Source of the DNA: Patescibacteria group bacterium
GTDB taxonomy: Bacteria > Patescibacteriota > Doudnabacteria > UBA920 > O2-02-FULL-48-8
DNA length: 64,000 nt
NCBI GenBank assembly: GCA_036278915.1
Contig: DASUKB010000004.1
Span: 73,441-137,440 of the forward strand
Direction: 5' to 3'
In this document: piece by piece, positions 1,767 through 64,000 of the stretch
Layout: every line of letters begins with the position of its first letter
Position numbering within the stretch: the first letter of the stretch is position 1
Position numbers and translations under genes: made by a program
The notes under the pieces: generated by a model
Seen by the model: only the letters and a program-made list of their open reading frames with translations
What the model was told of the DNA's origin: nothing
Database searches by the model: none

Positions 1767-2350
1767 TTTTTACTTTTATCCACGATCACGGCCGGGCTGT
1801 TCTCCAGAATATTTTTGATAAACCGGTCGTTCATGGTCCTCCGGTATTCAAACTCGGCCGTCGTAAAAACGGAGTAGCTGATTTCCTGCTCGGCAAACCG
1901 TTCGGCGAGTTTGATAAATTGCGAAAGTTTACGCGGCGAAACCCGCCCAACAAACAAAACATCTGTCTCAACACGCGGCTTGCCCCCAAACACGCCAGTG
2001 AAAACAATAAGCTTGCATTCCCCGACTTTCTGCGCGGCGCGCGCCAAGAGATCCGCGGGGTAGGCCTTATTTTTATGAAGCAGGTTCAAAAGTTCGGGAT
2101 ACAGTGCAAAGTGCTTGTTGACCTGAAAATATTTTCGGCGATTTTTTTCTCCTACTGCCAAGAATTCCATCTTGGAAAGTTCGCGTAGAGTTTTTTTCAA
2201 AAACTGGCTTGAGATGCCGGTGGACACGCGCAGCTCGGTAGCCGAAAAGCTCCGTTGCGGATGGGCCAAGAACAAATTGATAAGTTTGCTTTTGGGTTTG
2301 GATGCGAGAAGTTGTGCTAGCATGGCAATATTATACCACAAGTCGCACAA
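1751..2350 (-). CDS. hypothetical protein, possible winged-helix regulator
   Basis: 199-aa ORF with an HTH-like N-terminal segment (FSATELRVSTGISSQFLKKTLRELSKMEFL). It is divergent from the 2412 gene. The start may instead be the internal M at 2323. Confidence 0.45.
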   Translation of the reverse strand: MCDLWYNIAMLAQLLASKPKSKLINLFLAHPQRSFSATELRVSTGISSQFLKKTLRELSKMEFLAVGEKNRRKYFQVNKHFALYPELLNLLHKNKAYPADLLARAAQKVGECKLIVFTGVFGGKPRVETDVLFVGRVSPRKLSQFIKLAERFAEQEISYSVFTTAEFEYRRTMNDRFIKNILENSPAVIVDKSKNWLKV

Positions 2351-2411
2351 ATCTCATACCTGGGTCCTTGTGCAAAATCCGTTAATTTGTGGTATAATAT
2401 CTGAGCGAATT

Positions 2412-4418
2412 ATGGCCCGATTGGAAACACAAATAAATCAAATTTACTACCTGCCTGATGATAAGCGGGTTGCTCTTATACTGACGGAAGAGACCTTCGG
2501 CAGTAACTCCCACCTCTTTTTCATCGCGGACCTGGTCCGGATCGCCAAGCGAACAGAAAAATCCGACCTGGAAAAAATTTCTGAAATTATCCTGGGTATT
2601 TTCCGCGACAACAAAAAATTATCTGGCGAGGCTCTGTTTGAGTCTTCTCTAGCTGAAATAAATCAGCGACTGGCCGACTTTGCCCACGCGGGCAAAAAAA
2701 CATGGCTCGGTAAATTTTCCGCGGCCCTGGTGCTCAAACACGGCGAAAATATCTGTCTTGCAAACACCGGGCAAATGTCAGCCATGCTTTATCGCAATGA
2801 CGCATTTTTGGAAGTTCTGCCTGCGGAAAAACTGGGTCTGCATCCGCTTAAAATTTTCTCTAACTTCACCACTGGCAAGCTTAAAGCCTCCGACGTCCTG
2901 CTTTTGACCACGTCCAATCTCTTCAATTATCTGGCTCTTTCAAATCTGGCAGGAATGCTGTCATCCGCCGCTCCGGACCAAGTCGCCCAGGACGCGGCTG
3001 GCATTTTAAAAGACACTGCCGCAGCAGACGAAGGATTTGCTTCATTCTTTATTACAATGTCCAAAGCCCAAGCTCCAGCGGGTGTCGTCGTTCCCAAAGA
3101 AGAAAAAGAAAAACCCAAACCAGCAATTGTGGCACCTGAACCCGAGCCCTTGCCTTCGAAAGAACAAGCAAGCCCTGTGATTCCTCTGGCAGAAGAAGAG
3201 ATTTATGCGCCGCTGCCTGGAAGCACTAAACCGTCTCCACGCTTCTCGCCGCCCTCTTTGCCCAAAATTTCTTTTGGCAAGCTCAAAAAATTCCACCTAC
3301 CAAAAATTTCCTTTAGATTTCCGAAGCTTTCGTTTTGGGAACATCTGTCCACCTGGGCTAAATTTTTCCTCGTCAGTTTTATAATCTTTCTATTGCTGTT
3401 TGCATCCAACATAATTGCCTATAGCATTCGCAAACACCGGCAAGATAACACTTCACAGGCCCAAGCCGCGGTAGATGCTTTGACCAAGGATCTAAGTGAC
3501 GCAGAGTCATCGCTTATCTACCGCGACCAAACCAGTGCCCTGAATTTGCTTGCCAAAACCAACAATGATCTCAATGCTCTCAAGGACCTGGATCCAGACG
3601 CTTACAACCAATACCAGCCGCAGGTCGCCGATTTGTCCAGCCGCATCAACCATATCACTGTGGTCTCAAGTCCGCAGGTGCTGGTCACCCTCAAACATCC
3701 GGCCACAAATATTGCGCGGGCAGGCGCAGGTTTCTATATTGCCGACTCGAGCACTGGCACAATCTCAACCTATAATACTTCCAGCACTGACAAGTCGGGA
3801 AAAGAACTGTTTCTCCTCAACCAAATCGGACAAATCCAAGGTCTGGTATTCATTCCGAATGTCGGCGGCGTAGTTATCACCGCCTCAGAGATGTACGTAG
3901 TCGACACGGCGCAAAGCCAGTTTGATCTCCTGCATATCTATCCTAAAACAAGCCTCGATGGCCTGCGTTTCGTCAACCCCGACCAGCTCTATACATTGGA
4001 CAAGGCCGCAGGCCAGGCTGACCAAATCCAATTTTCTAAAAGCGAGCAGATTGATCCGGTGCCGCTGCTTAAATCAAAAATTGACTTAACCGATATTGTA
4101 GATATCGGCGCGGACTCTGATATCTACCTTCTGTCTCCCACTGATCTTGCCAAATATACCAAAGGTGCTTTAAATAGTAATTTCCAGCTGCAACAGCCCA
4201 CGGATAAACTTACCTCCGCCAATAAATTATTTGTCGCTGGCAATATTTATATTTTGGAATCTGCAAAGAAGCGTTTGCTTATATACAACAAACAAGGCCA
4301 ATTGCAAACGCAAATTTTCTTCCCGAACGCCACTGATCTGCGAGATTTCTACGTTGACGAATCCTCGCGGAACATTTTCCTGCTTGACTCGGACAAAATC
4401 GAATCAATCACCTTCTAG
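2412..4418 (+). CDS. membrane-anchored protein with a degenerate PP2C-like N-terminal domain, a Pro-rich linker, one TM helix and a large extracytoplasmic domain
   Basis: Start chosen at MARLETQ (ATG 2412), downstream of an extended -10 (TGgTATAAT, 2390-2398). The N-domain has PP2C-like motif remnants (ANTGQMSAML; DVLLLTTSNLFNYL) with the catalytic Asp positions substituted. It is followed by a PEPEPLP linker, a TM helix (FLVSFIIFLLLFASNIIAY) and about 330 extracellular residues. Confidence 0.5.
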   Translation: MARLETQINQIYYLPDDKRVALILTEETFGSNSHLFFIADLVRIAKRTEKSDLEKISEIILGIFRDNKKLSGEALFESSLAEINQRLADFAHAGKKTWLGKFSAALVLKHGENICLANTGQMSAMLYRNDAFLEVLPAEKLGLHPLKIFSNFTTGKLKASDVLLLTTSNLFNYLALSNLAGMLSSAAPDQVAQDAAGILKDTAAADEGFASFFITMSKAQAPAGVVVPKEEKEKPKPAIVAPEPEPLPSKEQASPVIPLAEEEIYAPLPGSTKPSPRFSPPSLPKISFGKLKKFHLPKISFRFPKLSFWEHLSTWAKFFLVSFIIFLLLFASNIIAYSIRKHRQDNTSQAQAAVDALTKDLSDAESSLIYRDQTSALNLLAKTNNDLNALKDLDPDAYNQYQPQVADLSSRINHITVVSSPQVLVTLKHPATNIARAGAGFYIADSSTGTISTYNTSSTDKSGKELFLLNQIGQIQGLVFIPNVGGVVITASEMYVVDTAQSQFDLLHIYPKTSLDGLRFVNPDQLYTLDKAAGQADQIQFSKSEQIDPVPLLKSKIDLTDIVDIGADSDIYLLSPTDLAKYTKGALNSNFQLQQPTDKLTSANKLFVAGNIYILESAKKRLLIYNKQGQLQTQIFFPNATDLRDFYVDESSRNIFLLDSDKIESITF

Positions 4419-4435
4419 TTCCAACAAATTTAGCC

Positions 4436-4472
4436 ACAAAAAAACCGCCTTTTACAAAAGCGGTTTTTTATT
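4436..4472. terminator. bidirectional rho-independent terminator
   Basis: Hairpin aaaaaaccgcc-ttttacaaaa-ggcggtttttt flanked by A and T runs, downstream of the 2412..4418 gene. Confidence 0.6.
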
Positions 4473-4621
4473 TGATCTTTTTACTTTTAACTTCAAGCTT
4501 CTAGCTTAAACCCTCATCTGTCCCCACCACCGCAAAGCCAAAACGCTTGCGCGCGTTATGACGACCGAAGCGATTATCCCCAGCAAACCTAATTTTAAAA
4601 TATTTTGAAAAATTCGTTCGG

Positions 4622-6304
4622 TCATTTTGATTGCGTGGTTGTTTGAGCCGGCGTCGAACTGGCTCCAAAATTCACCAAATCGGGGTTAATAGTCCGAAGG
4701 AGGATGTACGCACCAAACAGCAGGATAAGTCCGACGACTGCCGAAGTGATATATTTTTTACCGCGGCTGGCTCGATCGGCATTGCCTGCCGAGGTCATAG
4801 TGATATAGCCTCCGACAATTATCATAAGCACGGCCAGAATTGCGGCCACACTCAAGGACCACGTATAAACCTTACTAACTGAAACCCGGATAGGACCAAG
4901 ATCTATAGTCCCCGCAGTCTGAGGCGGATTTGCTGGAGGATTTTTTGTTATAACCTCGCCCAGCCCAACATGGCTTGTAGCCGCGATATGGTCATAGTTG
5001 ACGCTTCCCAAAGTCACAGCCCCGGAACCGGTAACCGCCACTGCTGCATTATAAGTTCCGCAATTGCCGTCATTGCACGCAGGAGCAATAGTTAAATTGC
5101 TGTCATACACAAGTCCGGTATAGTCTAGCTCTGACAAGTCTGCGCCGCCTTCCCAATCCTGCGCTTCCAGAAAAAATGTATTCGTCGCAGGATTATAATT
5201 TAGAACAGGCGCGCCGTAACCGCCGGAGGATGTCACTGTCTGGCCAGAGTTGATGGTCATAACCGGAAATTCCGGCCCGAGTGAACCATCGCTTTGGATA
5301 TTTCGGCCCCAAATCCCTCCGTTTGAGCCATCGCGTCCGCGCTCCATCCACACGGCAACCGCAGTTTTATCCACGGGATCATAAGCTATTTGCGAATTGG
5401 AAAACGCGTTTCGCCCAACCCGGGTCTGGCTCAACTGGACGGGTGCGCCTATTAATTCACCGGTTTTGGCGTTGATGCGCTGCAACATGACCCGGTCATC
5501 CTCATTGGCTGTGTCAGAACCGCTTAAAAGCGCCACATAGGTGGCCAAGTATTCATCGTTGTTTGTATCCACGGCAACACTGCTGAAAATATCTTGAAAA
5601 TCATTGCTGCCAAAATATATAACTTTCGGGTCAACCTTGCCATTTTCGTCCACAAGGTCAATTTCCGGATGATTAAACCCGCGCAATATCAGATATTTGT
5701 CATTTACGGGATCAAACGTTACTCCGGCCAAAAGGGCCACTGAAGTGCTCACCACGAACTCATTTCCCAAAGGCTGCCCTGTGCCGGAAACAAAGCGCGC
5801 GTAAGTTGATCGGCCATTCGTGGTTGGACGTTCGTCTTCCCAAGCGACCAAAAATTTGTCAGCGGCCGAATTATAAATGGCTTTGGGCGTACCGCGAAAC
5901 ATACCGCTGGCTTGGTCAATTTGAAAAGCAGACCCGAGAGGCGCTAGCGTTTCAGGATCTGCCATAACACCCCTAATGTGGACATTTTCGGAAGATCCCG
6001 TGGCTGAATCTGAAGCCACAACCAACAGTTGATTATGTATATCCGAATATGACGCGTCCAAGCCCCAGGTGCCGGACAGAGGAAACGTTGAAGGATCGGC
6101 TGGGTTGGTGCCGGGCGCGTAGGTTTTACCTGTCTGATGGTTGTTGTACCAATCCAGACAATTCAACATCGCCGCCGTGTCCGTGGGCCACGGATCGCAA
6201 ACTGGAGCGGTTTGCGCTTGAACCAGGCTAACAGGTCCTAAAACTAGCAATAATATTGCGGCAAAATTTACAAATTTGTAAATTTTTATCCTAATGGTAT
6301 TCAT
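4622..6304 (-). CDS. large secreted protein with C-terminal two-helix T4SS-pilin-like (VirB2/TrbC-like) domain
   Basis: N-terminal signal peptide MNTIRIKIYKFVNFAAILLLVLGPVSLVQA. The C-terminal about 80 aa (VYTWSLSVAAILAVLMIIVGGYITMTSAGNADRASRGKKYITSAVVGLILLFGAYILLRTINPDLVNF) are two hydrophobic helices separated by a short polar loop. This domain is paralogous to the C-terminus of the 51232..51669 protein. It is the last gene of a four-gene minus-strand operon and overlaps the 6291 gene. Confidence 0.6.
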   Translation of the reverse strand: MNTIRIKIYKFVNFAAILLLVLGPVSLVQAQTAPVCDPWPTDTAAMLNCLDWYNNHQTGKTYAPGTNPADPSTFPLSGTWGLDASYSDIHNQLLVVASDSATGSSENVHIRGVMADPETLAPLGSAFQIDQASGMFRGTPKAIYNSAADKFLVAWEDERPTTNGRSTYARFVSGTGQPLGNEFVVSTSVALLAGVTFDPVNDKYLILRGFNHPEIDLVDENGKVDPKVIYFGSNDFQDIFSSVAVDTNNDEYLATYVALLSGSDTANEDDRVMLQRINAKTGELIGAPVQLSQTRVGRNAFSNSQIAYDPVDKTAVAVWMERGRDGSNGGIWGRNIQSDGSLGPEFPVMTINSGQTVTSSGGYGAPVLNYNPATNTFFLEAQDWEGGADLSELDYTGLVYDSNLTIAPACNDGNCGTYNAAVAVTGSGAVTLGSVNYDHIAATSHVGLGEVITKNPPANPPQTAGTIDLGPIRVSVSKVYTWSLSVAAILAVLMIIVGGYITMTSAGNADRASRGKKYITSAVVGLILLFGAYILLRTINPDLVNFGASSTPAQTTTQSK

Positions 6305-6926
6305 CTTTGCATGGGCCGATGTAGCGGTTTACTTCGGCGTTAAAGATAGCCACACAATAAACCTGGCCCGTATCGCTATCGCGTAAATTTACCCACGGAC
6401 TGCCCAGGCCATCATTGATCGCTGTGTTGGCGCTGGCAATGCTTTGGACTGCGGATATCGAAGCTTGCGCTCCATTGGCATCTGCCACTGGATTTTTATG
6501 ATCTCCAGCAGGAATTATATTATCAATCGGCGGTTCCTGCATGAAATTCGCCGGTATTTGAAATGTCGGCACAACGGCCACCGCAGGTTGATTAATTTTC
6601 GCAGGCGTTAGAAGCTGCGCGAATTCATGTATCATACTGTTTCCAATATACGCCACGCCGCTTTCGGTTGGCGCTGGAGTCAGAGCAACAATTACTGCAT
6701 CCGCAGACTCTTGATAAAATTCATTGACTGAAGACACTATTAGATTCACTTCGCCAAACCACGGCCGATCACCTATGACCTCAAGCGTAGCCACTTGGAA
6801 CTGGTGTTTGACGGACTGCTGGAACTGCGCGACGTCTGAATTTCTAGCGGGCTGCAGCACAAAAGCCGCCGCTAAAAGCAACACGGCGGATAGTGAATAA
6901 AAAAGCTGTTCAGTCCAGTGTCTCAT
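6291..6926 (-). CDS. hypothetical secreted/membrane-anchored protein (paralog of the 6923..7423 protein)
   Basis: N-terminal hydrophobic anchor. Shares the motif V.S(V)NEFYQESA with the upstream gene. Overlapping start/stop couples it translationally to its neighbours. Confidence 0.5.
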   Translation of the reverse strand: MRHWTEQLFYSLSAVLLLAAAFVLQPARNSDVAQFQQSVKHQFQVATLEVIGDRPWFGEVNLIVSSVNEFYQESADAVIVALTPAPTESGVAYIGNSMIHEFAQLLTPAKINQPAVAVVPTFQIPANFMQEPPIDNIIPAGDHKNPVADANGAQASISAVQSIASANTAINDGLGSPWVNLRDSDTGQVYCVAIFNAEVNRYIGPCKDEYH

Positions 6927-7423
6927 TTGCGTATCGACGCGCCAGCCACGCGAGATGACAATTCCGGCGAGTAGGCCGGTTTATAAAAACTTGAAAGATC
7001 CAAAACCTGAGCCAGCTGCTGGGACGCAACGTTATAAAAATTGTTAACGCCGGAAATGGCCAGCATCGGTCCTGGGACGTTTGATCCGTCAAGCAGCTGC
7101 GCCATCGCTATTGCAGACTGATTGTAAAATTCTTGTACAGATACGACAGTGAACTCAACCGGAGTAGCGGCAACCTTAAGATCTGAAACCATGGAAGTAA
7201 TGCCGGACGAAACGTCTAGCACCGAGGCTCCAGCCTGCCAATCTTTGGGCGTGGCGTTCAAAACCAGAGCCGATTCGGCAAATAAAAATACAGCCAAAAC
7301 TATGCCCAATATATATGCAGGATACTTTTTGGCTGCTTTTGGCTTGGAATTTTTTCGCGCGGATTTGTTTGTTTTTGTCCTGCGAACCTGTTTTGTCTTT
7401 TTGTTTTTGATTTTGGTTTTCAT
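6923..7423 (-). CDS. hypothetical Lys-rich membrane-anchored protein (paralog of the 6291..6926 protein)
   Basis: Lys/Arg-rich N-terminus, one TM helix, then two copies of a V.EFY/NFY...SA motif (VVSVQEFYNQSAIAMAQLL; ISGVNNFYNVASQQLAQVL). Confidence 0.5.
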   Translation of the reverse strand: MKTKIKNKKTKQVRRTKTNKSARKNSKPKAAKKYPAYILGIVLAVFLFAESALVLNATPKDWQAGASVLDVSSGITSMVSDLKVAATPVEFTVVSVQEFYNQSAIAMAQLLDGSNVPGPMLAISGVNNFYNVASQQLAQVLDLSSFYKPAYSPELSSRVAGASIRK

Positions 7424-7425
7424 TG

Positions 7426-7929
7426 CTACTGGCCCATTTTCAAAATGCTTGGTGCATGATAGTAGTATTCCTTTTGGAAATATTTCGGAGTTGTCGTCTG
7501 AACCTGGTTTACTACGGCTTGCGTTTCGTGTGTGCTTATGAACGCACCTAAGACCTGACCCAAATCCGCTTGCGGTGCAGTATTGGCTCGCGCATAAGAA
7601 ACCCCGACGCTGTCGGCATAGTTCCCTATCGCATCGGCAAGCCTAATGGTTGTCGTGCCGACGGAGTCCGGATAGCTGAAAATTTGAGTGAAAGCAACGT
7701 CAAAATCATCGTAGAAAGTCTGGAACGAACCATACGCTAGTCCCAACTGCGATGAAGTCTGTGCCACGTTCTGACGCAAGTCAAAAATTTCCAAAGCCTT
7801 GGAAACCTGTGTCTGGGTACGGACCGGAAGGCTCATATACATTTGTATGCCTATAAGGACAAGCCCAGCCGCCGCGACTATAATCGTGCAGACTTCAAAA
7901 CCGGTTAGTTTGTTGTAGTTTGTTTTCAA
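7426..7929 (-). CDS. prepilin-like protein (type IV pilin-like N-terminus)
   Basis: N-terminus MKTNYNKLTGFEVCTIIVAAAGLVLIGI has a short basic leader, Gly-Phe, then about 20 hydrophobic residues, as in class III (prepilin) signals. The Glu is at +2 rather than +5. It is the first gene of the 7929->4622 operon. Confidence 0.4.
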   Translation of the reverse strand: MKTNYNKLTGFEVCTIIVAAAGLVLIGIQMYMSLPVRTQTQVSKALEIFDLRQNVAQTSSQLGLAYGSFQTFYDDFDVAFTQIFSYPDSVGTTTIRLADAIGNYADSVGVSYARANTAPQADLGQVLGAFISTHETQAVVNQVQTTTPKYFQKEYYYHAPSILKMGQ

Positions 7930-8690: not shown

Positions 8691-8747
8691 TTGTCATCCT
8701 GAGCACAGAGAAGGATTTAGTATTCTTCGCTTCGCTCAGAATGACAA
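8691..8747. repeat. palindromic hairpin repeat, family 1, copy A (TGTCATCCTGAGC...GCTCAGAATGACA)
   Basis: TTGTCATCCTGAGCACAGAGAAGGATTTAGTATTCTTCGCTTCGCTCAGAATGACAA. An imperfect inverted repeat of about 23 bp per arm. It sits in the rplJ-rplL spacer. Near-identical copies are at 22024-22081 and 49621-49680, and a diverged copy at 49225-49286. Confidence 0.85.
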
Positions 8748-21607: not shown

Positions 21608-21681
21608 TGGCAGGGGGTGTAGGAATCGAACCTACGCCAACGGTTTTGGAGACCGCAGTACTACCACTATACTAACCCCCC
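21608..21681 (-). tRNA. tRNA-Trp (anticodon CCA)
   Basis: Minus-strand GGGGGGTTAGTATAGTGGTAGTACTGCGGTCTCCAAAACCGTTGGCGTAGGTTCGATTCCTACACCCCCTGCCA. Cloverleaf with anticodon loop CUCCAAA. Confidence 0.85.
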
Positions 21682-21691
21682 TCATAGGGAA

Positions 21692-21946
21692 CTATTTAAT
21701 CCCTAATCGTTTTAATAACCCTGTATAGGACGATCCAAAATCTTTTAATTTCTGTTCTCTGTTCAGAGCCGCAGCTTTATCGGGATAAGCTTCAAAGTAA
21801 ATCAATTTTAAAGGCAGTCGACTACTTGTAGATTTGACCTTGCCTGGATTATGGAGGTTGAGCCGTGACATTACATCTTCGGTGTAGCCGATATAAAATC
21901 CATTATCTTTCAGACTTTGCAAGAGGTAAACGAAATGCATATCCAT
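21692..21946 (-). CDS. GIY-YIG domain nuclease (small free-standing)
   Basis: MDMHFVYLLQSLKDNGFYIGYTEDVMSRLNLHNPGKV...IYFEAYPDKAAALNREQKLK carries the GIY..YIG and conserved R, E, N positions. Start set at ATG 21946. The ORF caller's longer N-terminus just translates the tRNA remnant. Confidence 0.7.
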   Translation of the reverse strand: MDMHFVYLLQSLKDNGFYIGYTEDVMSRLNLHNPGKVKSTSSRLPLKLIYFEAYPDKAAALNREQKLKDFGSSYTGLLKRLGIK

Positions 21947-21950
21947 ACTA

Positions 21951-22023
21951 TGGGTGTAGGAATCGCCCCGCCTCTCGCGAGGTGGGGTTGGAGACCGCAG
22001 TACTACCACTATACTAACCCCCC
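21951..22023 (-). pseudogene. tRNA-Trp pseudo-copy (nt 1-37 intact, middle replaced by a 22-nt hairpin, 3' end degenerate)
   Basis: 22023-21989 is identical to tRNA-Trp positions 1-37, ending exactly after the anticodon loop A37. Then comes CCCCACCTCGCGAGAGGCGGGG, then CGATTCCTACACCC (T-arm 3' part). There is no acceptor 3' strand or CCA. Confidence 0.6.
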
Positions 22024-22081
22024 TCGTCATCCTGAACGCAGTGAAGGACCTTTGGATTCTTCGCTTCGCTCAGAATGACAC
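22024..22081. repeat. palindromic hairpin repeat, family 1, copy B
   Basis: TCGTCATCCTGAACGCAGTGAAGGACCTTTGGATTCTTCGCTTCGCTCAGAATGACAC, abutting the 5' end of the tRNA-Trp pseudo-copy. Confidence 0.85.
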
Positions 22082-26180: not shown

Positions 26181-26207
26181 CCTGATCGCAAAGATCAAGC
26201 TTTTTTC
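26181..26207. terminator. bidirectional terminator
   Basis: aaaagcctgatcgcaaagatcaagctttttt. Confidence 0.5.
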
Positions 26208-26227
26208 TGGTGGGCAGGATAGGATTC
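26201..26227 (+). repeat. 27-nt direct repeat (copy 1) = tRNA-Tyr 3' end plus downstream T-run
   Basis: TTTTTTCTGGTGGGCAGGATAGGATTC is identical to 26334-26360. Confidence 0.8.
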
Positions 26228-26333: not shown

Positions 26334-26360
26334 GGATTTTTTCTGGTGGGCAGGATAGGA
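26334..26360 (+). repeat. 27-nt direct repeat (copy 2), overlapping the tRNA-Tyr 3' end
   Basis: Identical 27-mer. The two copies bracket a 106-nt hairpin-rich segment (26228-26333). Confidence 0.8.
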
Positions 26361-26430
26361 TTCGAACCTATGAAGGCGCAAGGCCAGCTGATTTACAGTC
26401 AGCCGCGTTTGACCGCTTCGCTACCTGCCC
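26344..26430 (-). tRNA. tRNA-Tyr (anticodon GUA), class II long variable arm
   Basis: GGGCAGGTAGCGAAGCGGTCAAACGCGGCTGACTGTAAATCAGCTGGCCTTGCGCCTTCATAGGTTCGAATCCTATCCTGCCCACCA. Confidence 0.85.
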
Positions 26431-48690: not shown

Positions 48691-49632
48691 GTGACAAAGA
48701 AATTTATGCATAGATTAATAATAATTTTGGGTCCCACCGCCTCCGGCAAATCATCTCTTGCAATTAAACTTGCAAAAAAGTTTAAGGGCGAGATTATTTC
48801 CGCAGACAGCAGGCAAGTCTATCGCGGCATGGATATCGGCACTGGCAAGATTTCCAAAAAAGAACAACGCCTGGTACCGCACTATTTGATGGACGTTGCA
48901 AATCCCAAAAAACAGTTCACCGTCTCTGACTTCAAAAAGCTAGGAGCCCAGGCAATCGAAAGAATCAAGAAAAAACATAAATTGCCGTTTATAGTTGGCG
49001 GCACGGCCTTTTATATCTATTCGCTCATAGACGACTGGCAGATTCCGGAAGTTGCGCCAAATAAAAAATTACGTAATACATTACGTAATAAATCCACCAG
49101 GGAACTTTTTGCCATGCTCCAAAAACTGGATCCGAGGCGCGCGGCCAACATAGACTCACGCAATCCCGCGCGCCTCAGCCGCGCGATTGAGATAGTCAAA
49201 ACGACAGGTAGGCCAGTGCCCTCCCTGTCATCCCCGACTCCGATCGGGGATCTTAATAAAGATTCCCGCTTCCGCGGGAATGACACAAAGGTTTTATTAC
49301 TTGGTATCCGCAAAGACCAAAACGAGCTTTACAAGCTTATCGATAAGCGCTTGGAAGAAAGATTGAGGTCAGGAATGGTTGCAGAGGTAAAAAAACTTCA
49401 CAAATCTGGTTTGTCTTGGAATAAACTAGAAAGCTTTGGTCTAGAGTACCGCTTTGTTTCTCTTTATTTACAAAATAAATTATCTTATAGAAAAATGGTA
49501 GACCAGCTCAAATCCGCCATTCATAAATTTTCCAAACGCCAGAATACATGGTTTAAACGCGACACTCGGATCCATTGGATCAAAAACGAAAAAGAAGCTC
49601 GGAAACTGATTAAGCCTTATCTGTCATCCTGA
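48691..49632 (+). CDS. miaA: tRNA dimethylallyltransferase
   Basis: P-loop IIILGPTASGKSSLAI...ISADSRQVYRGMDIGTGK is the MiaA signature. The stop codon TGA lies inside repeat copy C. Confidence 0.85.
   Translation: MTKKFMHRLIIILGPTASGKSSLAIKLAKKFKGEIISADSRQVYRGMDIGTGKISKKEQRLVPHYLMDVANPKKQFTVSDFKKLGAQAIERIKKKHKLPFIVGGTAFYIYSLIDDWQIPEVAPNKKLRNTLRNKSTRELFAMLQKLDPRRAANIDSRNPARLSRAIEIVKTTGRPVPSLSSPTPIGDLNKDSRFRGNDTKVLLLGIRKDQNELYKLIDKRLEERLRSGMVAEVKKLHKSGLSWNKLESFGLEYRFVSLYLQNKLSYRKMVDQLKSAIHKFSKRQNTWFKRDTRIHWIKNEKEARKLIKPYLSS
49225..49286 (+). repeat. palindromic hairpin repeat, family 1, copy D, in-frame inside miaA
   Basis: CTGTCATCCCCGACTCCGATCGGGGATCTTAATAAAGATTCCCGCTTCCGCGGGAATGACAC shares its termini (TGTCATCC...GAATGACA) and central GGATCTTAATAAAGATTC with copies A-C. 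It encodes SSPTPIGDLNKDSRFRGND, an approximately 20-aa loop not present in, for example, E. coli MiaA. Confidence 0.7.
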
Positions 49633-49680
49633 ACGTAGTGAAGGATCTCATAAGATTCTTCGCTGCGCTCAGAATGACAA
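49621..49680. repeat. palindromic hairpin repeat, family 1, copy C
   Basis: CTGTCATCCTGAACGTAGTGAAGGATCTCATAAGATTCTTCGCTGCGCTCAGAATGACAA lies between the convergent miaA and gatB genes. It overlaps the last codons and stop of miaA. Confidence 0.85.
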
Positions 49681-49756: not shown

Positions 49757-51229
49757 TTACATTCCCAATTCTTTTTTCAGCAGCTCGTTTATCTTTTGCG
49801 GGTTGCCGCGACCACCCATTTCTTTCATTGTCTGGCCCACCAAGAAGCCAAGCGATTTCTCACCTTTGGTCTTAGCATCCTCAACACCTTTTGGATTGGC
49901 TTCAATGACTCTTTTGACTGCGGAAAGAAGTTCGCCCTCATTCGAGACCTGTTCCAGTCCCATGCTCTGCAAAAGATTGCTTGGATCTTCGCCTGTCTCA
50001 AACATTTTAGCAAAGACATCTTTTGCGCCAAGCTGGCTGACCTTTCCTTGACCAATGAGCTTGATGAGTTCTGCAAAATTTTCTTGCGTGATTTTTGAGT
50101 CGACCGGCAGAGTTCCATGCTCATTGAGTAAAGCCAAGAATTGGCCAATCGTCCAGTTGGCTGCCAGCTTTACCAATTTATTGCGATCTTGGCCTTTTTC
50201 GATCTCAAACCATTCGTCCAGTTCAGAAACAACCTGCTCAAAGTATTCGGAGAGCTCTTTGTAGTTAACCAAAATTTCCGCGTCTTTTTCGGCAATGCCA
50301 AACTGACTTACGAATCTCTCCTTTCGAGTATTTGGAAGTTCCGGCAATTCTCTTCGTAATTCTTCAATATGGTCTTTGGTAAAGTGCAGCATGGGCAAAT
50401 CCGGCTCCGGGAAGTAGCGGTAGTCCTGCGACTCTTCTTTGGAACGCTGCGAGACTGTAATAGCCTTGTCATCCACGAAGCCGCGAGTTTCGCTGGCTGG
50501 AACTTCGCCGCTGTCTAGGATTTCTGCCTGACGTTTGACTTCATACTCTATGGCGTTGGCCACGGCGCGGAACGAATTCATATTTTTGACTTCCACTTTG
50601 TATGCCGGAAGCTTAGATTCTCCAACTTTGCGAAGGCTTATATTGGCATCGCAGCGCAAGTGGCCCTTTTCCATGTCCGCATCCGACACGCCCAGGTACC
50701 TGGCGATTGACTGCAAATTTTGCAGATACGCTTTGGCTTCCTCGGATGTGCGCATATCCGGCTCGGACACGATTTCCAAAAGCGGCGTGCCCGCGCGGTT
50801 GTAGTCCACCAAACTGTAATTTTCCCCCGCCGGGTGCAAAAGTTTTCCAGCGTCCTCCTCTAGGTGTGCGCGTGTAATGCCAATTGTCCGCGTCTGGCCG
50901 TTTACTGTAAGCTGCATTTGCCCGCGGCCATTGAGCGGCATGTCAAACTGCGAAATCTGGTAGCCTTTCGGTAGGTCCGGATAAAAATAATTTTTGCGGT
51001 CAAATTTGCTGTACTCGGCAATTTCGCAATTGAGCGCCAACCCCACCATGAGCGCCTTGTGCACAGCCTCTTGGTTTATTACAGGCAGAGTGCCGGGATG
51101 GCCGGTGCAGACTTCGCAGATGTGCACGTTTGGCCGGTCTGCTTCGGCATTCGGGGACGCGCAAAACATTTTGCTCTTGGTTTTGAGCTGGATGTGGACC
51201 TCCAGGCCGATTATAGTCTCGTAAGTCAT
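49757..51229 (-). CDS. gatB: Asp/Glu-tRNA amidotransferase subunit B
   Basis: MTYETIIGLEVHIQLKTKSKMFC is the GatB N-terminus. It also has the helical and YqeY-like tail. Confidence 0.9.
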   Translation of the reverse strand: MTYETIIGLEVHIQLKTKSKMFCASPNAEADRPNVHICEVCTGHPGTLPVINQEAVHKALMVGLALNCEIAEYSKFDRKNYFYPDLPKGYQISQFDMPLNGRGQMQLTVNGQTRTIGITRAHLEEDAGKLLHPAGENYSLVDYNRAGTPLLEIVSEPDMRTSEEAKAYLQNLQSIARYLGVSDADMEKGHLRCDANISLRKVGESKLPAYKVEVKNMNSFRAVANAIEYEVKRQAEILDSGEVPASETRGFVDDKAITVSQRSKEESQDYRYFPEPDLPMLHFTKDHIEELRRELPELPNTRKERFVSQFGIAEKDAEILVNYKELSEYFEQVVSELDEWFEIEKGQDRNKLVKLAANWTIGQFLALLNEHGTLPVDSKITQENFAELIKLIGQGKVSQLGAKDVFAKMFETGEDPSNLLQSMGLEQVSNEGELLSAVKRVIEANPKGVEDAKTKGEKSLGFLVGQTMKEMGGRGNPQKINELLKKELGM

Positions 51230-51231
51230 AA

Positions 51232-51669
51232 TTAGTTGTGTGGGGGCGGCACAGTGGTATTGTCCGCGGGTTTGGCGCAGCTGTCGATATGGTTCACGCA
51301 GGAACTGCTGAAGTCCACAAGATCAGGATTTATAGTTTTAAGTAAAATATATGCGCCCAAAAGAAGAATCAACCCAATGACAGATGAAAATATGTACGAT
51401 CTGCCGCGCGTCGCCCTGTCCGCATTGCCCGCGGAAGTTAGAGTTATATAACCGCCCACGATAATCATAAGCACAGCCAGGACAGCAGCCACGGATATAG
51501 ACCAGACATAAACCTGGCTCACGCATGAAGTCAGCGCTTGGCCAGTGGAATTGGTGGTGGTTGTGGTGCCCGTATTGGTATCCGTACCGCAACTCGCGGC
51601 AAATGCCGGATGCGGCACAAACGACAGGGCAAAAAAGATAAGACCGAAACCGACAAGTTGGCGTTTCAT
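51232..51669 (-). CDS. small secreted protein with two-helix T4SS-pilin-like (VirB2/TrbC-like) C-terminal domain
   Basis: Signal peptide, Thr-rich linker (TNTGTTTTTNSTG), then VYVWSISVAAVLAVLMIIVGGYITLTSAGNADRATRGRSYIFSSVIGLILLLGAYILLKTINPDLVDF. This stretch is about 75% identical to the C-terminus of the 4622..6304 protein. It sits between gatA and gatB. Confidence 0.6.
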   Translation of the reverse strand: MKRQLVGFGLIFFALSFVPHPAFAASCGTDTNTGTTTTTNSTGQALTSCVSQVYVWSISVAAVLAVLMIIVGGYITLTSAGNADRATRGRSYIFSSVIGLILLLGAYILLKTINPDLVDFSSSCVNHIDSCAKPADNTTVPPPHN

Positions 51670-51678
51670 ATTTTTGTG

Positions 51679-53133
51679 TTAGGAAATTGGCGGAGTTAAT
51701 TTTAAATTATTGATTTTTTCAAAAGCATCCCCCGCTGCAAATAATTTCTCCTCCGCAAAGTGGTTGGCGATTAATTGCAGGCCCACAGGCAAGCCGGATT
51801 TGGTGATCCCTGCCGGGATGGAAATGCCAGGCACACCGGCGATATTCAGACCGACCGTAAATATATCGGCCAGGTACATGGAAATTGGGTCCGCGACCCG
51901 CTCACCCAGTTTAAATGCCGGAGTCGGGCAGGTCGGCGTGAGCAAGATATCAAACTTTTCGAAAGCTTCCTTGAAATCGCGACGGATAAGTTTCTGCGCG
52001 GTCTGTGCTTTTTTGTAATACGCATCCTTGTAACCGGCACTTGAAGCATAAGTACCGATCATAATGCGGCGCTTAGGCTCCTCACCAAACCCGGCCGTGC
52101 GCGTGTTTTCGTAGACTTGCGTCAAGTTTTGTCCAGGTTCGGACAGTCCGTAGCGGATGCCGTCGTAACGCGAAAGGTTGGCTGAAATTTCCACGGGCAA
52201 GATAATGTAGTAGCAGGCAAGGGCGTATGATGCATGCGGAAGCGTTGTTTCGGACACTACGGCGCCCATTTTTTCGAACTTTGAAATTGCCTGCTCGATG
52301 ATTTGTTTAACTTCCGGGTCCAAGCCTTCGCCAAAATACTCATTGGGCACGCCAACTTTTAAACCTTTGAGGTCTGATCCCAAAAATTTGGAATAATCCG
52401 GCACAGGGACCGGGATCGTGGTCGTGTCGTGCGCATCGGACCCGGCAAACGCTTGGAAGGCAATACTGGCATCTTCCACGGTTTTGGCAAACACACCGAT
52501 CTGGTCCAGAGACGAGCCCAGGGCCACGGCGCCAAACCGCGACACGCGTCCATACGTTGGCTTGAGTCCGACCACGCCGCAAAAACTCGCCGGCTGGCGG
52601 ATCGAGCCTCCTGTATCGGTACCGAGGGCAAACAAAACTTCACCCGACGCCACAGCGGCAGCCGAACCGCCCGACGAGCCGCCAGGCACTCGCAACAGGT
52701 CATAAGGGTTTTTGGTGGGACCGTACGCGGAATTTTCTGTTGACGAGCCCATTGCAAATTCATCAAGGTTGGTTTTGCCAACGAGCACCGGGTTGAGATT
52801 TGAAAGCTTCCGCACGACCGTGGCATCGTAAACTGCCTTATAATTTTTCAAAATTTTGGAACCAGCAGTAAGCGGGAGATCTTTTGCTAAAATATTGTCC
52901 TTGAGCGCGTAAGGAATTCCCAAAATCTGCGCGTCATCGCCTCCCTTAAGCCTTTCGTCGGCAAGTTTGGCGTCGGCAAGCGCGCGTTCCTCGGAAACGT
53001 GCAGAAAAGCGTGCAATTTTGGTTCAAGCGCACGAATGCGGGCAAGCGCGGCAGTGGCTAGTTCCATAGCGCTCGTTTCTTTGCGGGCAAGCATGTTCGC
53101 CGCATGCTTTAGAGTCAGATCTTTGTAATCCAT
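51679..53133 (-). CDS. gatA: Asp/Glu-tRNA amidotransferase subunit A
   Basis: Amidase signature GGSSGGSAAAVASG. Length 484 aa. Confidence 0.9.
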   Translation of the reverse strand: MDYKDLTLKHAANMLARKETSAMELATAALARIRALEPKLHAFLHVSEERALADAKLADERLKGGDDAQILGIPYALKDNILAKDLPLTAGSKILKNYKAVYDATVVRKLSNLNPVLVGKTNLDEFAMGSSTENSAYGPTKNPYDLLRVPGGSSGGSAAAVASGEVLFALGTDTGGSIRQPASFCGVVGLKPTYGRVSRFGAVALGSSLDQIGVFAKTVEDASIAFQAFAGSDAHDTTTIPVPVPDYSKFLGSDLKGLKVGVPNEYFGEGLDPEVKQIIEQAISKFEKMGAVVSETTLPHASYALACYYIILPVEISANLSRYDGIRYGLSEPGQNLTQVYENTRTAGFGEEPKRRIMIGTYASSAGYKDAYYKKAQTAQKLIRRDFKEAFEKFDILLTPTCPTPAFKLGERVADPISMYLADIFTVGLNIAGVPGISIPAGITKSGLPVGLQLIANHFAEEKLFAAGDAFEKINNLKLTPPIS

Positions 53134-53137
53134 GGAT

Positions 53138-53419
53138 TTAGAAAACGCTTTTGACTTTCACAAACCCGTCCTGCTGGCCATTCGCCTGATCCAAAAATTC
53201 CGTAGGATTAAGTTCGGCCGCGGCGATATCTTCGCGCATCAAATTCAAGGCCCGAGAGTCCAAATCGGAAGCCGCAGAACTTTCTGTAATCTGCGTGAGC
53301 TGGTTCACGTAATCCAAAATTCCGGACAATTCTTGTTGTAGTTTCAATTTTTCTTCTGGTGTGAATTTCAAACGCGCAAGTGTTGCGATTTTGTCTACTT
53401 CTTCTTTCGAAATGCTCAT
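53138..53419 (-). CDS. gatC: Asp/Glu-tRNA amidotransferase subunit C
   Basis: MSISKEEVDKIATLARLKFTPEEKLKLQQELSGILDYVNQL. Confidence 0.85.
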   Translation of the reverse strand: MSISKEEVDKIATLARLKFTPEEKLKLQQELSGILDYVNQLTQITESSAASDLDSRALNLMREDIAAAELNPTEFLDQANGQQDGFVKVKSVF

Positions 53420-53464
53420 AAAGCTGCGGGATTTTATTACTGATTTATGATTAATTATACCACA

Positions 53465-53893
53465 TTATGGCTTTTCTGCCAAAACTTGGCTAATAACCTG
53501 ACTGCGAAATCCTTTACGGGATAATTTTTGAGCTAAACGTTCCCGATCCGTCTCTCTTGGATTTTTGTCCAAAAATTTTTGGGCAATTTCCCGTTCATGC
53601 TCAAGCGATAAATTTTCTGACAGCAATTTTTCGGCTTCATTGCTTGCCACGCCATGCGACATTAGTTTAGCCTTAAGTCCATAAAATCCGAAAGTTTTGT
53701 TTCGCATAAGGCTGTCTAGGTAGTTTTGTGCAAATTCGTAATCATTAAGCAGGCCTTGGGCGGACAATCTGACCAAGACCTCGTCTATATCGGATTTGAC
53801 AAAACCGCGCAGCATAAGTTTCCTGCGAATCTCCTGTGAATGGTGTGGCCGCAATTTGATAAATTGAAGCGCTTTTTCGTAAGTATTAACCAC
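53465..53893 (-). CDS. recX: RecX-family regulatory protein
   Basis: Three-helix repeat architecture. ALQFIKLRPHHSQEIRRKLMLRGF is typical of RecX. Confidence 0.65.
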   Translation of the reverse strand: MVNTYEKALQFIKLRPHHSQEIRRKLMLRGFVKSDIDEVLVRLSAQGLLNDYEFAQNYLDSLMRNKTFGFYGLKAKLMSHGVASNEAEKLLSENLSLEHEREIAQKFLDKNPRETDRERLAQKLSRKGFRSQVISQVLAEKP

Positions 53894-56568: not shown

Positions 56569-57276
56569 ATGGCGTGGCTTACCAACATAAAAACACTAGG
56601 TCTGTCTGCACTAGACCTAGTGTTTCCCATATCTTGCGTCGTGTGCGGTCGCGAAGGCGCGCACATTTGTGAGTCTTGTCTAATCCGCTTGCCGCGTATT
56701 CCTCAGCAGCTCTGCGTCGTGTGTAAAAAAAGCGCGGCGTTCGGCAAGACGCATCCGGACTGCCACACCTGCCACACCGTGGATGGTTTAATTTCCGCCA
56801 TATCCTACACTGACACAAACGCAAAAAAATTGATTGGCGTGTTCAAATATGAATTTATTCACGATTTGGCAGAGCCTTTGGCAAAACTTATAACGGAGAC
56901 GGTTGCCAATTTGCAATTAGGAAATTATTTTTCCAACTTTGCAATTATACCCGTGCCACTTCACCGGCGCCGATACAACTGGCGCGGTTTCAACCAATCT
57001 GAACTCTTGGCGTATGCTTTGGGCGTTGCCCTCAACATACCAGTGGATAAAAACCTAGTCAGTCGGTCCAAAAAGACCAAGCCGCAAACAACACTTAATA
57101 AAGAAGACCGAATCGCAAACATCTCCGCAGCGTTTACCTTAAACGCTGCGGTGCCTGGCAAATACTTGCTGGTGGATGACGTGGTTACAACGGGCGCCAC
57201 GCTCAATGAAATTGCCAAACTTCTGAAAAAAAATGGCGCCCAGGAGGTCTGGGCCGCCACAATCGCTCATGGGTAA
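56569..57276 (+). CDS. comFC: competence protein ComFC (phosphoribosyltransferase-like)
   Basis: N-terminal double Cys zinc ribbon (CVVCGR...CESC...CVVCKK...HPDCHTCH) and a C-terminal PRTase motif LLVDDVVTTGATL. Confidence 0.8.
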   Translation: MAWLTNIKTLGLSALDLVFPISCVVCGREGAHICESCLIRLPRIPQQLCVVCKKSAAFGKTHPDCHTCHTVDGLISAISYTDTNAKKLIGVFKYEFIHDLAEPLAKLITETVANLQLGNYFSNFAIIPVPLHRRRYNWRGFNQSELLAYALGVALNIPVDKNLVSRSKKTKPQTTLNKEDRIANISAAFTLNAAVPGKYLLVDDVVTTGATLNEIAKLLKKNGAQEVWAATIAHG

Positions 57277-63262: not shown

Positions 63263-64000
63263 TTATTGCGTGAGCGTGTAGAGTTTACCGTCGGAACTGT
63301 TTATAAAGCAGATGATCTGGCCGTCCATAAACACATTATGCGGATGCATAGTCGCCTCAAACGTGTAGACGAGTTGTTTTTGCAAAGTTGTTAGATCAAA
63401 TTTGTAAATTGAATCCGCCTGGCCGTCGTTTAGATCCACGTACAAATTTTCTCCTGTCGCGTCAGCAGCAGTCTGATCCAGAGTCGCAGCCAGTCCAAGA
63501 TCCGTGGCCTTGGAAGCAGAGGCATCGTAAAGCCAAAGGTCCGGGCCGGAGCTCGATATTTGAGTGTAAATAAATTTATTCGCTCCAATCCATTGCGCTT
63601 CCGTGTTTTTCCCGGCATCTACGATTGTGGTAAACGCTCCTGTGGTAAGATCAGCTTCGTAAATTTTGTTCGTGTCCTGGATTTGCCCACGCCAGAGCAG
63701 CGCATGCAGGCCGTCAGGCGAAACCTTAATTTGTAAATCCGGCCAAAATACCGTGCTCAGCGCTTTGTAGCCGCTTAAATCCGCATTGGCCACCATTAGT
63801 TGACTCTGTTTGCCGTCAGTGGATTCCCAAATGTAGGCTATGCGCTTGCCATCCGGCAAAAAATCAAAACTTTGAACATTGGCCGGGTACGTGATAAATT
63901 TTTTGGCGCTGCTGTCGTAAAATTTGCGTGAAGAGTCAGCTGTGGCATTGGCCATGGTTATAAAGCTATCACCGGCCGCGGGCCAGACTGCCTGGTGAAA
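63263..64000 (-). CDS. beta-propeller (TolB/PD40-like) protein, N-terminus outside window
   Basis: Repeated strand-turn motifs (DGKRIAY; SPDGLHALLW; DGKLYTL) typical of PD40/WD-like propellers. The frame stays open to the window edge upstream of the first ATG. Confidence 0.5.
   Translation of the reverse strand, partial: FHQAVWPAAGDSFITMANATADSSRKFYDSSAKKFITYPANVQSFDFLPDGKRIAYIWESTDGKQSQLMVANADLSGYKALSTVFWPDLQIKVSPDGLHALLWRGQIQDTNKIYEADLTTGAFTTIVDAGKNTEAQWIGANKFIYTQISSSGPDLWLYDASASKATDLGLAATLDQTAADATGENLYVDLNDGQADSIYKFDLTTLQKQLVYTFEATMHPHNVFMDGQIICFINSSDGKLYTLTQ

Follow-up and report, generated by a model that had tools for sequence, protein, structure and literature searches.

VirB2-Like Pilins of Patescibacteria

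A large part of the bacterial diversity not yet cultured belongs to the Patescibacteria, and VirB2-like pilins linked to type IV secretion systems (T4SSs) have already been described in them. According to the survey by Quinonero-Coronel et al. 2025, in which 3,035 Patescibacteria genomes were searched with the profiles PF04956 and PF18895, VirB2-like pilins and VirB4 occur in 1,948 assemblies, in 1,135 cases near virB4 and often in arrays (PMC12102498). Wang et al. 2023 showed that a series of pilin genes in the T4SS cluster of Southlakia epibionticum is essential; in this sole genetically tested member of the group, the T4SS and its pilins are required for growth on the host (PMC10633639). 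A 2025 review restates the points on the VirB2-like pilins of Patescibacteria and on Southlakia (PMC12857230). Here, a member of the same family is considered that is encoded at 51232–51669 (minus strand) of a 64,000-nt stretch of contig DASUKB010000004.1 (assembly GCA_036278915.1), referred to below as the window. The gene, for a protein of 145 aa, lies inside the amidotransferase operon gatCAB, between gatA and gatB; this position is conserved in a Doudnabacteria-like clade, and a T4SS cluster in which no pilin-domain open reading frame (ORF) was found lies 14 kb away. The best explanation, and one that is considered fairly probable, is that the gene supplies a VirB2-like pilin to this T4SS and is made constitutively together with gatCAB.

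Since both the family and its association with secretion systems are already in print, the gain is incremental; the conserved gatCAB context is unreported and is a modest new detail. The survey mentions neither gatA, nor amidotransferase, nor Doudnabacteria (PMC12102498), and literature searches on Doudnabacteria pilins and on a gatCAB operon with a pilin yielded nothing relevant. An earlier note on this DNA, made from its letters alone, had graded the co-expression of a pilin-like subunit with translation genes as unusual; it is less so, since the family was already described in Patescibacteria by the survey and the Southlakia study (PMC12102498, PMC10633639).

A PF18895 Protein Encoded within gatCAB

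The ORF is intact, with an ATG start and a TAA stop. Nine nucleotides separate it from the gatA stop and two from the gatB start, and the gap between gatC and gatA is 4 nt, so the earlier placement of a 145-aa ORF between gatA and gatB with 2–9-nt spacers can be read directly from the sequence. The operon is recognizable as gatCAB from the presence of GatC, GatA, and GatB, all on one strand and closely packed. The protein is 100% identical to NCBI VFX17_04370, annotated as a “hypothetical protein” of a Patescibacteria metagenome-assembled genome and encoded there on a contig of 170,879 bp, and the closest relatives of GatB and of the neighboring VirB4 carry the label Candidatus Doudnabacteria.

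Residues 45–112 match PF18895 (T4SS_pilin), whose cutoff of 26.6 bits is exceeded at 30.0 bits (E = 5.4e-7, with positions 4–70 of the 71 in the profile covered). A separate VirB2/TrbC profile was composed of five annotated pilins: Agrobacterium VirB2, 100% identical to an annotated virB2, and four TrbC/VirB2 proteins from MPF-T plasmids. When it was compared by hhalign with an alignment of 33 family sequences, a probability of 88.4% was obtained (E = 2.8e-6, 62 columns), the alignment covering all of mature VirB2 in register, from its N-terminus through both helices, with 23% identity over the 62 columns. A reversed profile gave 3.2%, and 30 column shuffles gave at most 2.0%. The profile comparisons place the 145-aa protein in PF18895 and make it a distant relative of VirB2/TrbC, at the superfamily level and outside PF04956. 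The VirB2/TrbC-like two-helix domain that the earlier note proposed behind a signal peptide and a Thr-rich linker is supported by the PF18895 match and by the hhalign score.

Downstream of the signal peptide, whose A/S-x-A motif is retained in 8 of 8 orthologues, hydropathy peaks near residues 57–73 and 99–106 mark two hydrophobic helices. The loop between them, SAGNADRATRGRSY, contains three Arg and one Asp, which gives a net charge of +2. An AlphaFold2 model built with the 33-sequence alignment is a two-helix hairpin with a pLDDT of 76 overall and of 84–91 in the helices (residues 43–78 and 83–113); it superseded a run with 5 sequences, which was too poor (pLDDT 54.6). There are four cysteines, two in the N-terminal segment predicted to be outside (Cys27 and Cys49) and two in the tail (Cys124 and Cys131). 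The first two are conserved at 90% or more in the 33-sequence alignment, and the closest orthologues likewise have a C-x(6-8)-C pair in the tail.

The closest described proteins are the PF18895 pilins of Patescibacteria, which share with the 145-aa protein the signal peptide, the Cys-bearing N-terminal segment, two helices with a G-N-A loop, and the INPDL motif. As with them, a Gram-positive-type T4SS (VirB4, PrgI, TraC-like) is encoded in the same genome, and the gene falls within the ±20-gene virB4 neighborhood that the survey counts as “near” (PMC12102498). Unlike them, it is a single gene inside gatCAB, apparently coupled translationally to its neighbors, and not part of an array or of a T4SS cluster. 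Canonical MPF-T pilins (Agrobacterium VirB2, RP4 TrbC) are similar in their long signal peptide, two hydrophobic helices, and short loop, and in the predicted topology with both ends outside and the loop inside. They lack the Cys pairs and the variable N- and C-terminal extensions of the 145-aa protein, whose host is a monoderm and whose gene has gatA and gatB as neighbors rather than virB1, virB3, or virB4. Archaeal conjugation or Ced-type pilins (8dfu) also combine a VirB2-like hairpin with an organism devoid of an outer membrane, but no relationship at the sequence level was detected. Finally, the PilA-type type IV pili of Patescibacteria likewise involve a small secreted hydrophobic “pilin” and are implicated in host attachment; they belong to an unrelated family, from which the 145-aa protein differs in its Sec-type AxA signal and in having two helices instead of one.

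Consensus scans place a promoter-like site with an extended −10 element about 35 nt upstream of gatC, within the 3′ end of recX, and a terminator-like hairpin (a 12-bp stem with 6 G–C pairs, then a T-rich tail) at the end of gatB, both being pattern matches (Table 1). Between the two, the same scan gave few internal matches, at chance level, and the Rfam scan found zero RNA elements in the operon (seven tRNAs were detected elsewhere in the window). Spacing and pattern scans together suggest that gatC, gatA, the pilin gene, and gatB are co-transcribed.

Conservation of the gatA–Pilin–gatB Arrangement

The distribution of the arrangement was evaluated on 80 GTDB loci, sampled without bias by GatB similarity, in which gatA was sought within 4 kb of gatB. 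The pilin gene is present between gatA and gatB in all five loci with a GatB at least 72% identical, and no pilin-domain ORF occurs within 4 kb of gatB in the remaining GTDB loci (the other 73 scanned). Two relatives found via the pilin itself have the same order, with gatC visible in one of them, bringing the gatC–gatA–pilin–gatB loci from genomes and assemblies to seven in total; about 20 more contigs came from a scan of metagenomes, so that the arrangement is known from about 27 contigs besides the window itself. It is kept in the deep relatives L101, L103, L104, and L150, whose GatB is just 57–62% identical. The synteny proposed earlier as a check has therefore been found, related genomes carrying the same gene at the same gatA–gatB position; together with the HMM support, this means that the central reading of the note withstands both of its own refuting conditions. 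The accompanying statement that gatCAB is otherwise universally contiguous does not hold, as gatA lies within 4 kb of gatB in just 13 of the 80 related loci.

In 27 loci, the pilin gene is preceded by a spacer with a median of 4 nt and followed by one with a median of 3 nt, and 4-nt ATGA overlaps are frequent, which fits translational coupling. In a neighbor-joining tree of GatB, the pilin-bearing loci belong to one Doudnabacteria-like clade, where they form two subclades and are interleaved with L007 and L008, in which gatA and gatB are 30–60 nt apart, and with L006. Both one ancient insertion with later losses and two independent insertions are compatible with this tree. Selection on the gene is evident from eight orthologues, in which pN is 0.25–0.43 and pS is saturated at 0.66–0.91. 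The mean pairwise identity of the orthologues is 61% in the core, 16% in the linker, and 14% in the tail, and 24 residues are invariant in the eight-way alignment.

These data bear on the possibility that the ORF is spurious, decaying, or a recent mobile insertion hitch-hiking in the operon. The gatA–gatB junction does seem generally permissive to insertions, since it contains an unrelated 98-aa membrane ORF in L006 (1088–1384), a 102-aa zinc-ribbon-like ORF in L079 (3091–3399), and about 1.2 kb of other genes in L045 (2742–4001). The L006 ORF was considered as a decayed pilin and rejected (hhalign probability 1.2%, no Pfam hit). A spurious or mobile origin is nonetheless hardly credible for a gene with intact orthologues in about 27 contigs, saturated synonymous divergence, pN well under pS, and 24 invariant positions. 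Its base composition equals that of its flanks (GC3 of 0.548, against 0.563 for gatA and 0.572 for gatB), no repeats, integrase, or transposase flank it, and a paralogue in the window (see below), with 76% identity in protein and about 62% in DNA, points to an old constrained duplication. Conservation thus refutes such an origin as far as sequence analysis reaches. Given the number of contigs, the saturated synonymous sites, and the clear constraint on the protein, the pilin gene is old and fixed; it would have entered the gatCAB operon in an ancestor of the Doudnabacteria-like clade and been retained since.

A conserved position and translational coupling could also mean that the gene serves GatCAB itself, for instance by holding the amidotransferase at the membrane or controlling it there. 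These two features are all that speaks for such a role, which is considered very improbable. The predicted cytoplasmic part of the protein is a loop of about 12 residues alone, the sister lineages L007 and L008 have no pilin gene between gatA and gatB, and in most of the sampled Patescibacteria gatB is apart from gatA altogether. Moreover, L091 retains gatA and the pilin without gatB, and a near-identical domain is attached to an unrelated secreted protein of 560 aa.

The L091 locus (1957–5943) deserves a separate comment. Its gatC–gatA–pilin run is followed by a convergent “MARLETQ...” gene instead of gatB, and the corresponding gene of the window (2172–4418) adjoins the gene for the 560-aa paralogue. 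This may reflect a true rearrangement involving the two pilin loci or an error of assembly; an assembly chimera joining L090 and L099, which stem from the same sample, was rejected, since the DNA of L091 is just about 67% identical to theirs.

A Type IV Secretion Cluster beyond the Window End

Two Logan contigs, L163 and L164, overlap the window by 4232 nt at 100% identity and continue past its end. They reveal a cluster encoding, in this order, proteins of 336 aa, 481 aa (PASTA domain), 610 aa (VirB4), 229 aa (TraC-like), and 155 aa (PrgI/VirB3-like), followed by a PIN protein and proteins of 273, 1093 (VirB6-like), 664, and 252 aa; the run ends at ksgA. VirB4 matches P-loop_TraG with 88.6 bits and CagE_TrbE_VirB with 23.2 bits (cutoff 21), the PrgI match reaches 34.3 bits, and the 1093-aa protein, which is polytopic, has a weak TrbL/VirB6 hit of 17.7 bits. 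The 664-aa and 252-aa proteins are secreted. By its predicted components, this is a chromosomal T4SS of the Gram-positive type. No relaxase or coupling protein was seen in the T4SS stretch examined, and a search of the cluster ORFs gave no pilin-domain ORF; the gat-embedded gene is the nearest pilin-sized gene to virB4, 12 genes and 14 kb away.

In the earlier note, it was stated that no VirB4/VirB6-type genes are recognizable. This is right for the window, where Pfam scans of 30 other proteins gave no T4SS component, and it held there because the window stops short of the cluster; the VirB4/PrgI/TraC-like/VirB6-like genes begin at its last gene. The search for homologues that the note suggested accordingly finds VirB4 and a VirB6-like protein just past the window end.

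In the mechanism proposed, the operon would be transcribed from the gatC promoter as gatC–gatA–pilin–gatB, and the pilin would be made constitutively with an essential translation enzyme because its translation would be coupled to that of its neighbors. The protein would be exported by Sec, its signal peptide being cut after AFA, and would lie in the membrane as a two-helix hairpin, with the Thr-rich N-terminus and the Cys tail facing outward and the short positive loop in the cytoplasm. This topology is predicted; the assembly that would follow is to be taken more conditionally still. The membrane pool of subunits would most likely be extracted by the T4SS 14 kb away (VirB4, PrgI/VirB3, TraC-like, VirB6-like), and the subunits might polymerize into a surface filament or a channel segment for cell–cell contact.

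A Paralogue on a Secreted Protein and the Modularity of the Domain

A close paralogue of the gat-embedded domain terminates a 560-aa secreted protein, in which PF18895 matches residues 477–537 with 32.0 bits and the N-terminal part of about 470 residues has zero Pfam matches. The paralogy claimed earlier proved correct: 58 of 76 residues (76%) are identical between the gat-embedded core and the 560-aa C-terminus (E = 1e-37). According to tblastn, these are exactly two copies of the pilin domain in the window. Their DNA is about 62% identical and shares no long identical run, which rules out recent gene conversion; since protein identity is 76% and DNA identity about 62%, the duplication is old and held by selection at the protein level.

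The 560-aa gene closes a tight four-gene run (window 4622–7929, minus strand). The three small genes ahead of it encode proteins of 167, 166, and 211 aa, each of which has a single hydrophobic segment at the N-terminus and matches no Pfam family. At the syntenic position in L099, there is a pilin-domain protein of at least 1240 aa; with 560 aa here, the size of the ectodomain is highly variable.

The family is very broad. Its profile retrieves 35,438 cluster representatives from 1.84 billion proteins at E ≤ 1e-3 and 5,712 at E ≤ 1e-10. Domain architecture was recorded for 153 proteins, comprising the 150 best-scoring representatives and the earlier close relatives. Among these closest representatives, the domain stands alone (≤200 aa) in 38, is C-terminal in longer proteins (up to 1251 aa) in 30, N-terminal with a long extension in 35, and internal in 22, and it is present in 2–8 copies per protein in 28. 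P0059, for example, has 8 tandem PF18895 copies in 820 aa. The paragraphs of the T4SS survey consulted here do not mention this modularity (PMC12102498).

It is chiefly the modularity of the PF18895 domain that keeps another explanation alive, namely that the two-helix domain is a general membrane anchor or small integral membrane protein and “T4SS_pilin” merely a family label. In that case, the gat copy would be a membrane protein in its own right, and in the 560-aa paralogue the domain would tether an extracellular part to the cell surface. On this side stands the fact that just 38 of the 153 closest representatives are single domains, the rest being fused or multi-copy, and searches of the PDB by sequence returned no relative of solved structure. 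Against an anchor, both termini of F-type pilins face the pilus exterior, so terminal fusions are compatible with assembly. In addition, the in-register profile similarity to true VirB2/TrbC is far above its controls, and a T4SS cluster without a pilin of its own lies 14 kb off. Furthermore, the family co-occurs with virB4, often adjoining it, across Patescibacteria (PMC12102498), and the pilin genes of the Southlakia T4SS cluster are essential (PMC10633639). A general anchor is therefore regarded as unlikely, with a real share of the probability left to it.

Several points weigh against the view that the gat-embedded gene encodes a T4SS pilin, and they should be considered together. Of the two Pfam checks suggested earlier, the PF18895 one succeeded (30.0 versus 26.6 bits) and the PF04956 (TrbC/VirB2) one failed, at 14.3 bits against a threshold of 27.9 (E = 0.048). 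In a Foldseek search of the PDB, the conjugation pilus of Aeropyrum pernix (8dfu) ranks first, and this match is non-significant at E = 0.87 (probability 0.82, target-normalised TM-score 0.61, 84 of 84 residues aligned, rmsd 9.4 Å, 18% identity), which also leaves room for an anchor. Sequence searches of the PDB with the 5- and 33-sequence profiles gave the beta-2 adrenergic receptor and HtrII helices at E ≥ 0.035, and these were dismissed as hydrophobic-helix noise. Among the closest representatives, those that are not pilin-sized have 200–1278 aa or 2–8 tandem copies, and such modularity is at least as compatible with a general membrane module as with a filament subunit. With 12 genes between it and virB4, the gat-embedded gene lies outside the cluster, and in the relative Ga0163151_10000155 (L092) about 30 kb separate virB4 (4.2–6.1 kb) from the gat pilin (about 35.8 kb). 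About 77 kb of the genome was covered, so other pilin genes may exist elsewhere. The case for co-transcription consists of spacing and pattern scans, and no pilus built from the PF18895 family has been seen so far in the literature.

With these reservations, a VirB2-like pilin made with gatCAB for the nearby T4SS is still the explanation preferred here. The clade-wide pilin in gatCAB and the pilin-less cluster nearby hint at constitutive pilin production, the order gatA–pilin–gatB offers a simple genomic marker for the clade, and the pilin is a defined candidate for the major subunit. A bolder version, put forward tentatively and rather doubtful at present, is that the gat-embedded gene encodes the sole stand-alone (major) pilin of a T4SS whose cluster lost or never had a pilin gene, so that pilus production would be hard-wired to housekeeping expression and the filament would be constitutive. 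If this is true, the T4SS filament would be a growth-coupled organelle of the epibiotic lifestyle and not an induced transfer apparatus, and pilin domains joined to a large ectodomain, as in the 560-aa protein, would be minor subunits displaying adhesins on that filament.

Other Features of the Window

The coordinates of the features discussed above are collected in Table 1.

Table 1. Features of the gatCAB locus, its pilin gene, the paralogue, and the adjoining T4SS cluster (window coordinates).
Feature	Position	Strand	Basis or remark
Promoter-like site	53454..53482	−	Consensus scan: TTGGCA, 17-nt spacer with TG, TATAAT; 11/12 matches; pattern match
gatC, first gene of the unit	53138..53419	−	PF02686 GatC, 43 bits
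gatA, amidase subunit	51679..53133	−	PF01425 Amidase, 507 bits
145-aa VirB2-like pilin gene, including stop codon	51232..51669	−	PF18895 family
Sec-type signal peptide, residues 1–24	51598..51669	−	MKR, hydrophobic run, AFA↓A motif; cleavage site predicted
Thr-rich variable linker with Cys27, residues 25–48	51526..51597	−	10 Thr in 24 residues; predicted extracellular
Two-helix hairpin core, residues 49–118	51316..51525	−	C-x-x-Q-x-Y-x-W ... GGY ... G-N ... INPDL
Variable C-terminal tail, residues 119–145, with Cys124 and Cys131	51235..51315	−	Predicted extracellular
gatB, last gene of the unit	49757..51229	−	PF02934 GatB_N, 396 bits; PF02637 GatB_Yqey, 142 bits
Terminator-like hairpin over the gatB stop codon	49734..49760	−	Consensus scan, pattern match
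560-aa secreted protein, last ~86 residues = paralogous pilin domain	4622..6304	−	Core at nt 4655–4882
3′ part of the 336-aa gene, outermost of the T4SS cluster	63263..64000	−	Cluster: L163 3495–12856; L164 1249–14287

In the earlier note, comFC and a prepilin-like gene had also been listed for the window. The comF-like gene is there (56569–57276, plus strand) and encodes double zinc ribbon and phosphoribosyltransferase domains. The prepilin-like gene found no support: neither an N-methylation-site protein nor a type IV prepilin motif is present anywhere in the window, a regex scan of its six frames gave zero G↓F-T-L-I-E type IV prepilin (class III) motifs, and there was no Pfam hit.

Two tRNA genes are accompanied by duplications. 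The end of tRNA-Trp (21646–21681 plus 2 adjacent nt) has a perfect 38-nt duplicate at 21988–22025 (region 21608–22030). Because the two copies bracket a 113-aa ORF resembling a GIY-YIG nuclease (FVYLLQS...GFYIGYT), a small mobile element at the tRNA-Trp gene is suggested. An adjacent perfect duplicate of 27 nt is found at tRNA-Tyr (26201–26227 and 26337–26363).

The segment 41474–48145 carries a glycan gene cluster with a secreted GH6 (212 bits), a GH8 (110 bits), a glycosyltransferase of the PMT_2 type, and a double GT2 synthase of 731 aa, and it looks like a locus for the synthesis and trimming of cellulose or beta-glucan. In the relatives L001 and L002, the GT2 and miaA genes remain linked to gatB.

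A palindromic element of about 55–60 nt, GTCATCCTGAACG.AGTGAAGGA ... ATTCTTCGCT.CGCTCAGAATGACA, is present in three copies that are 81–96% alike (8693–8747, 22026–22081, and 49623–49680) and resembles REP-type repeats. Its third copy takes in the final 10 nt of miaA and extends into the spacer of the convergent miaA and gatB genes. MiaA itself (48691–49632, plus strand) contains the internal stretch …SPTPIGDLNKDSRFRGNDTKV…, which may be a segment derived from a repeat and inserted in frame.

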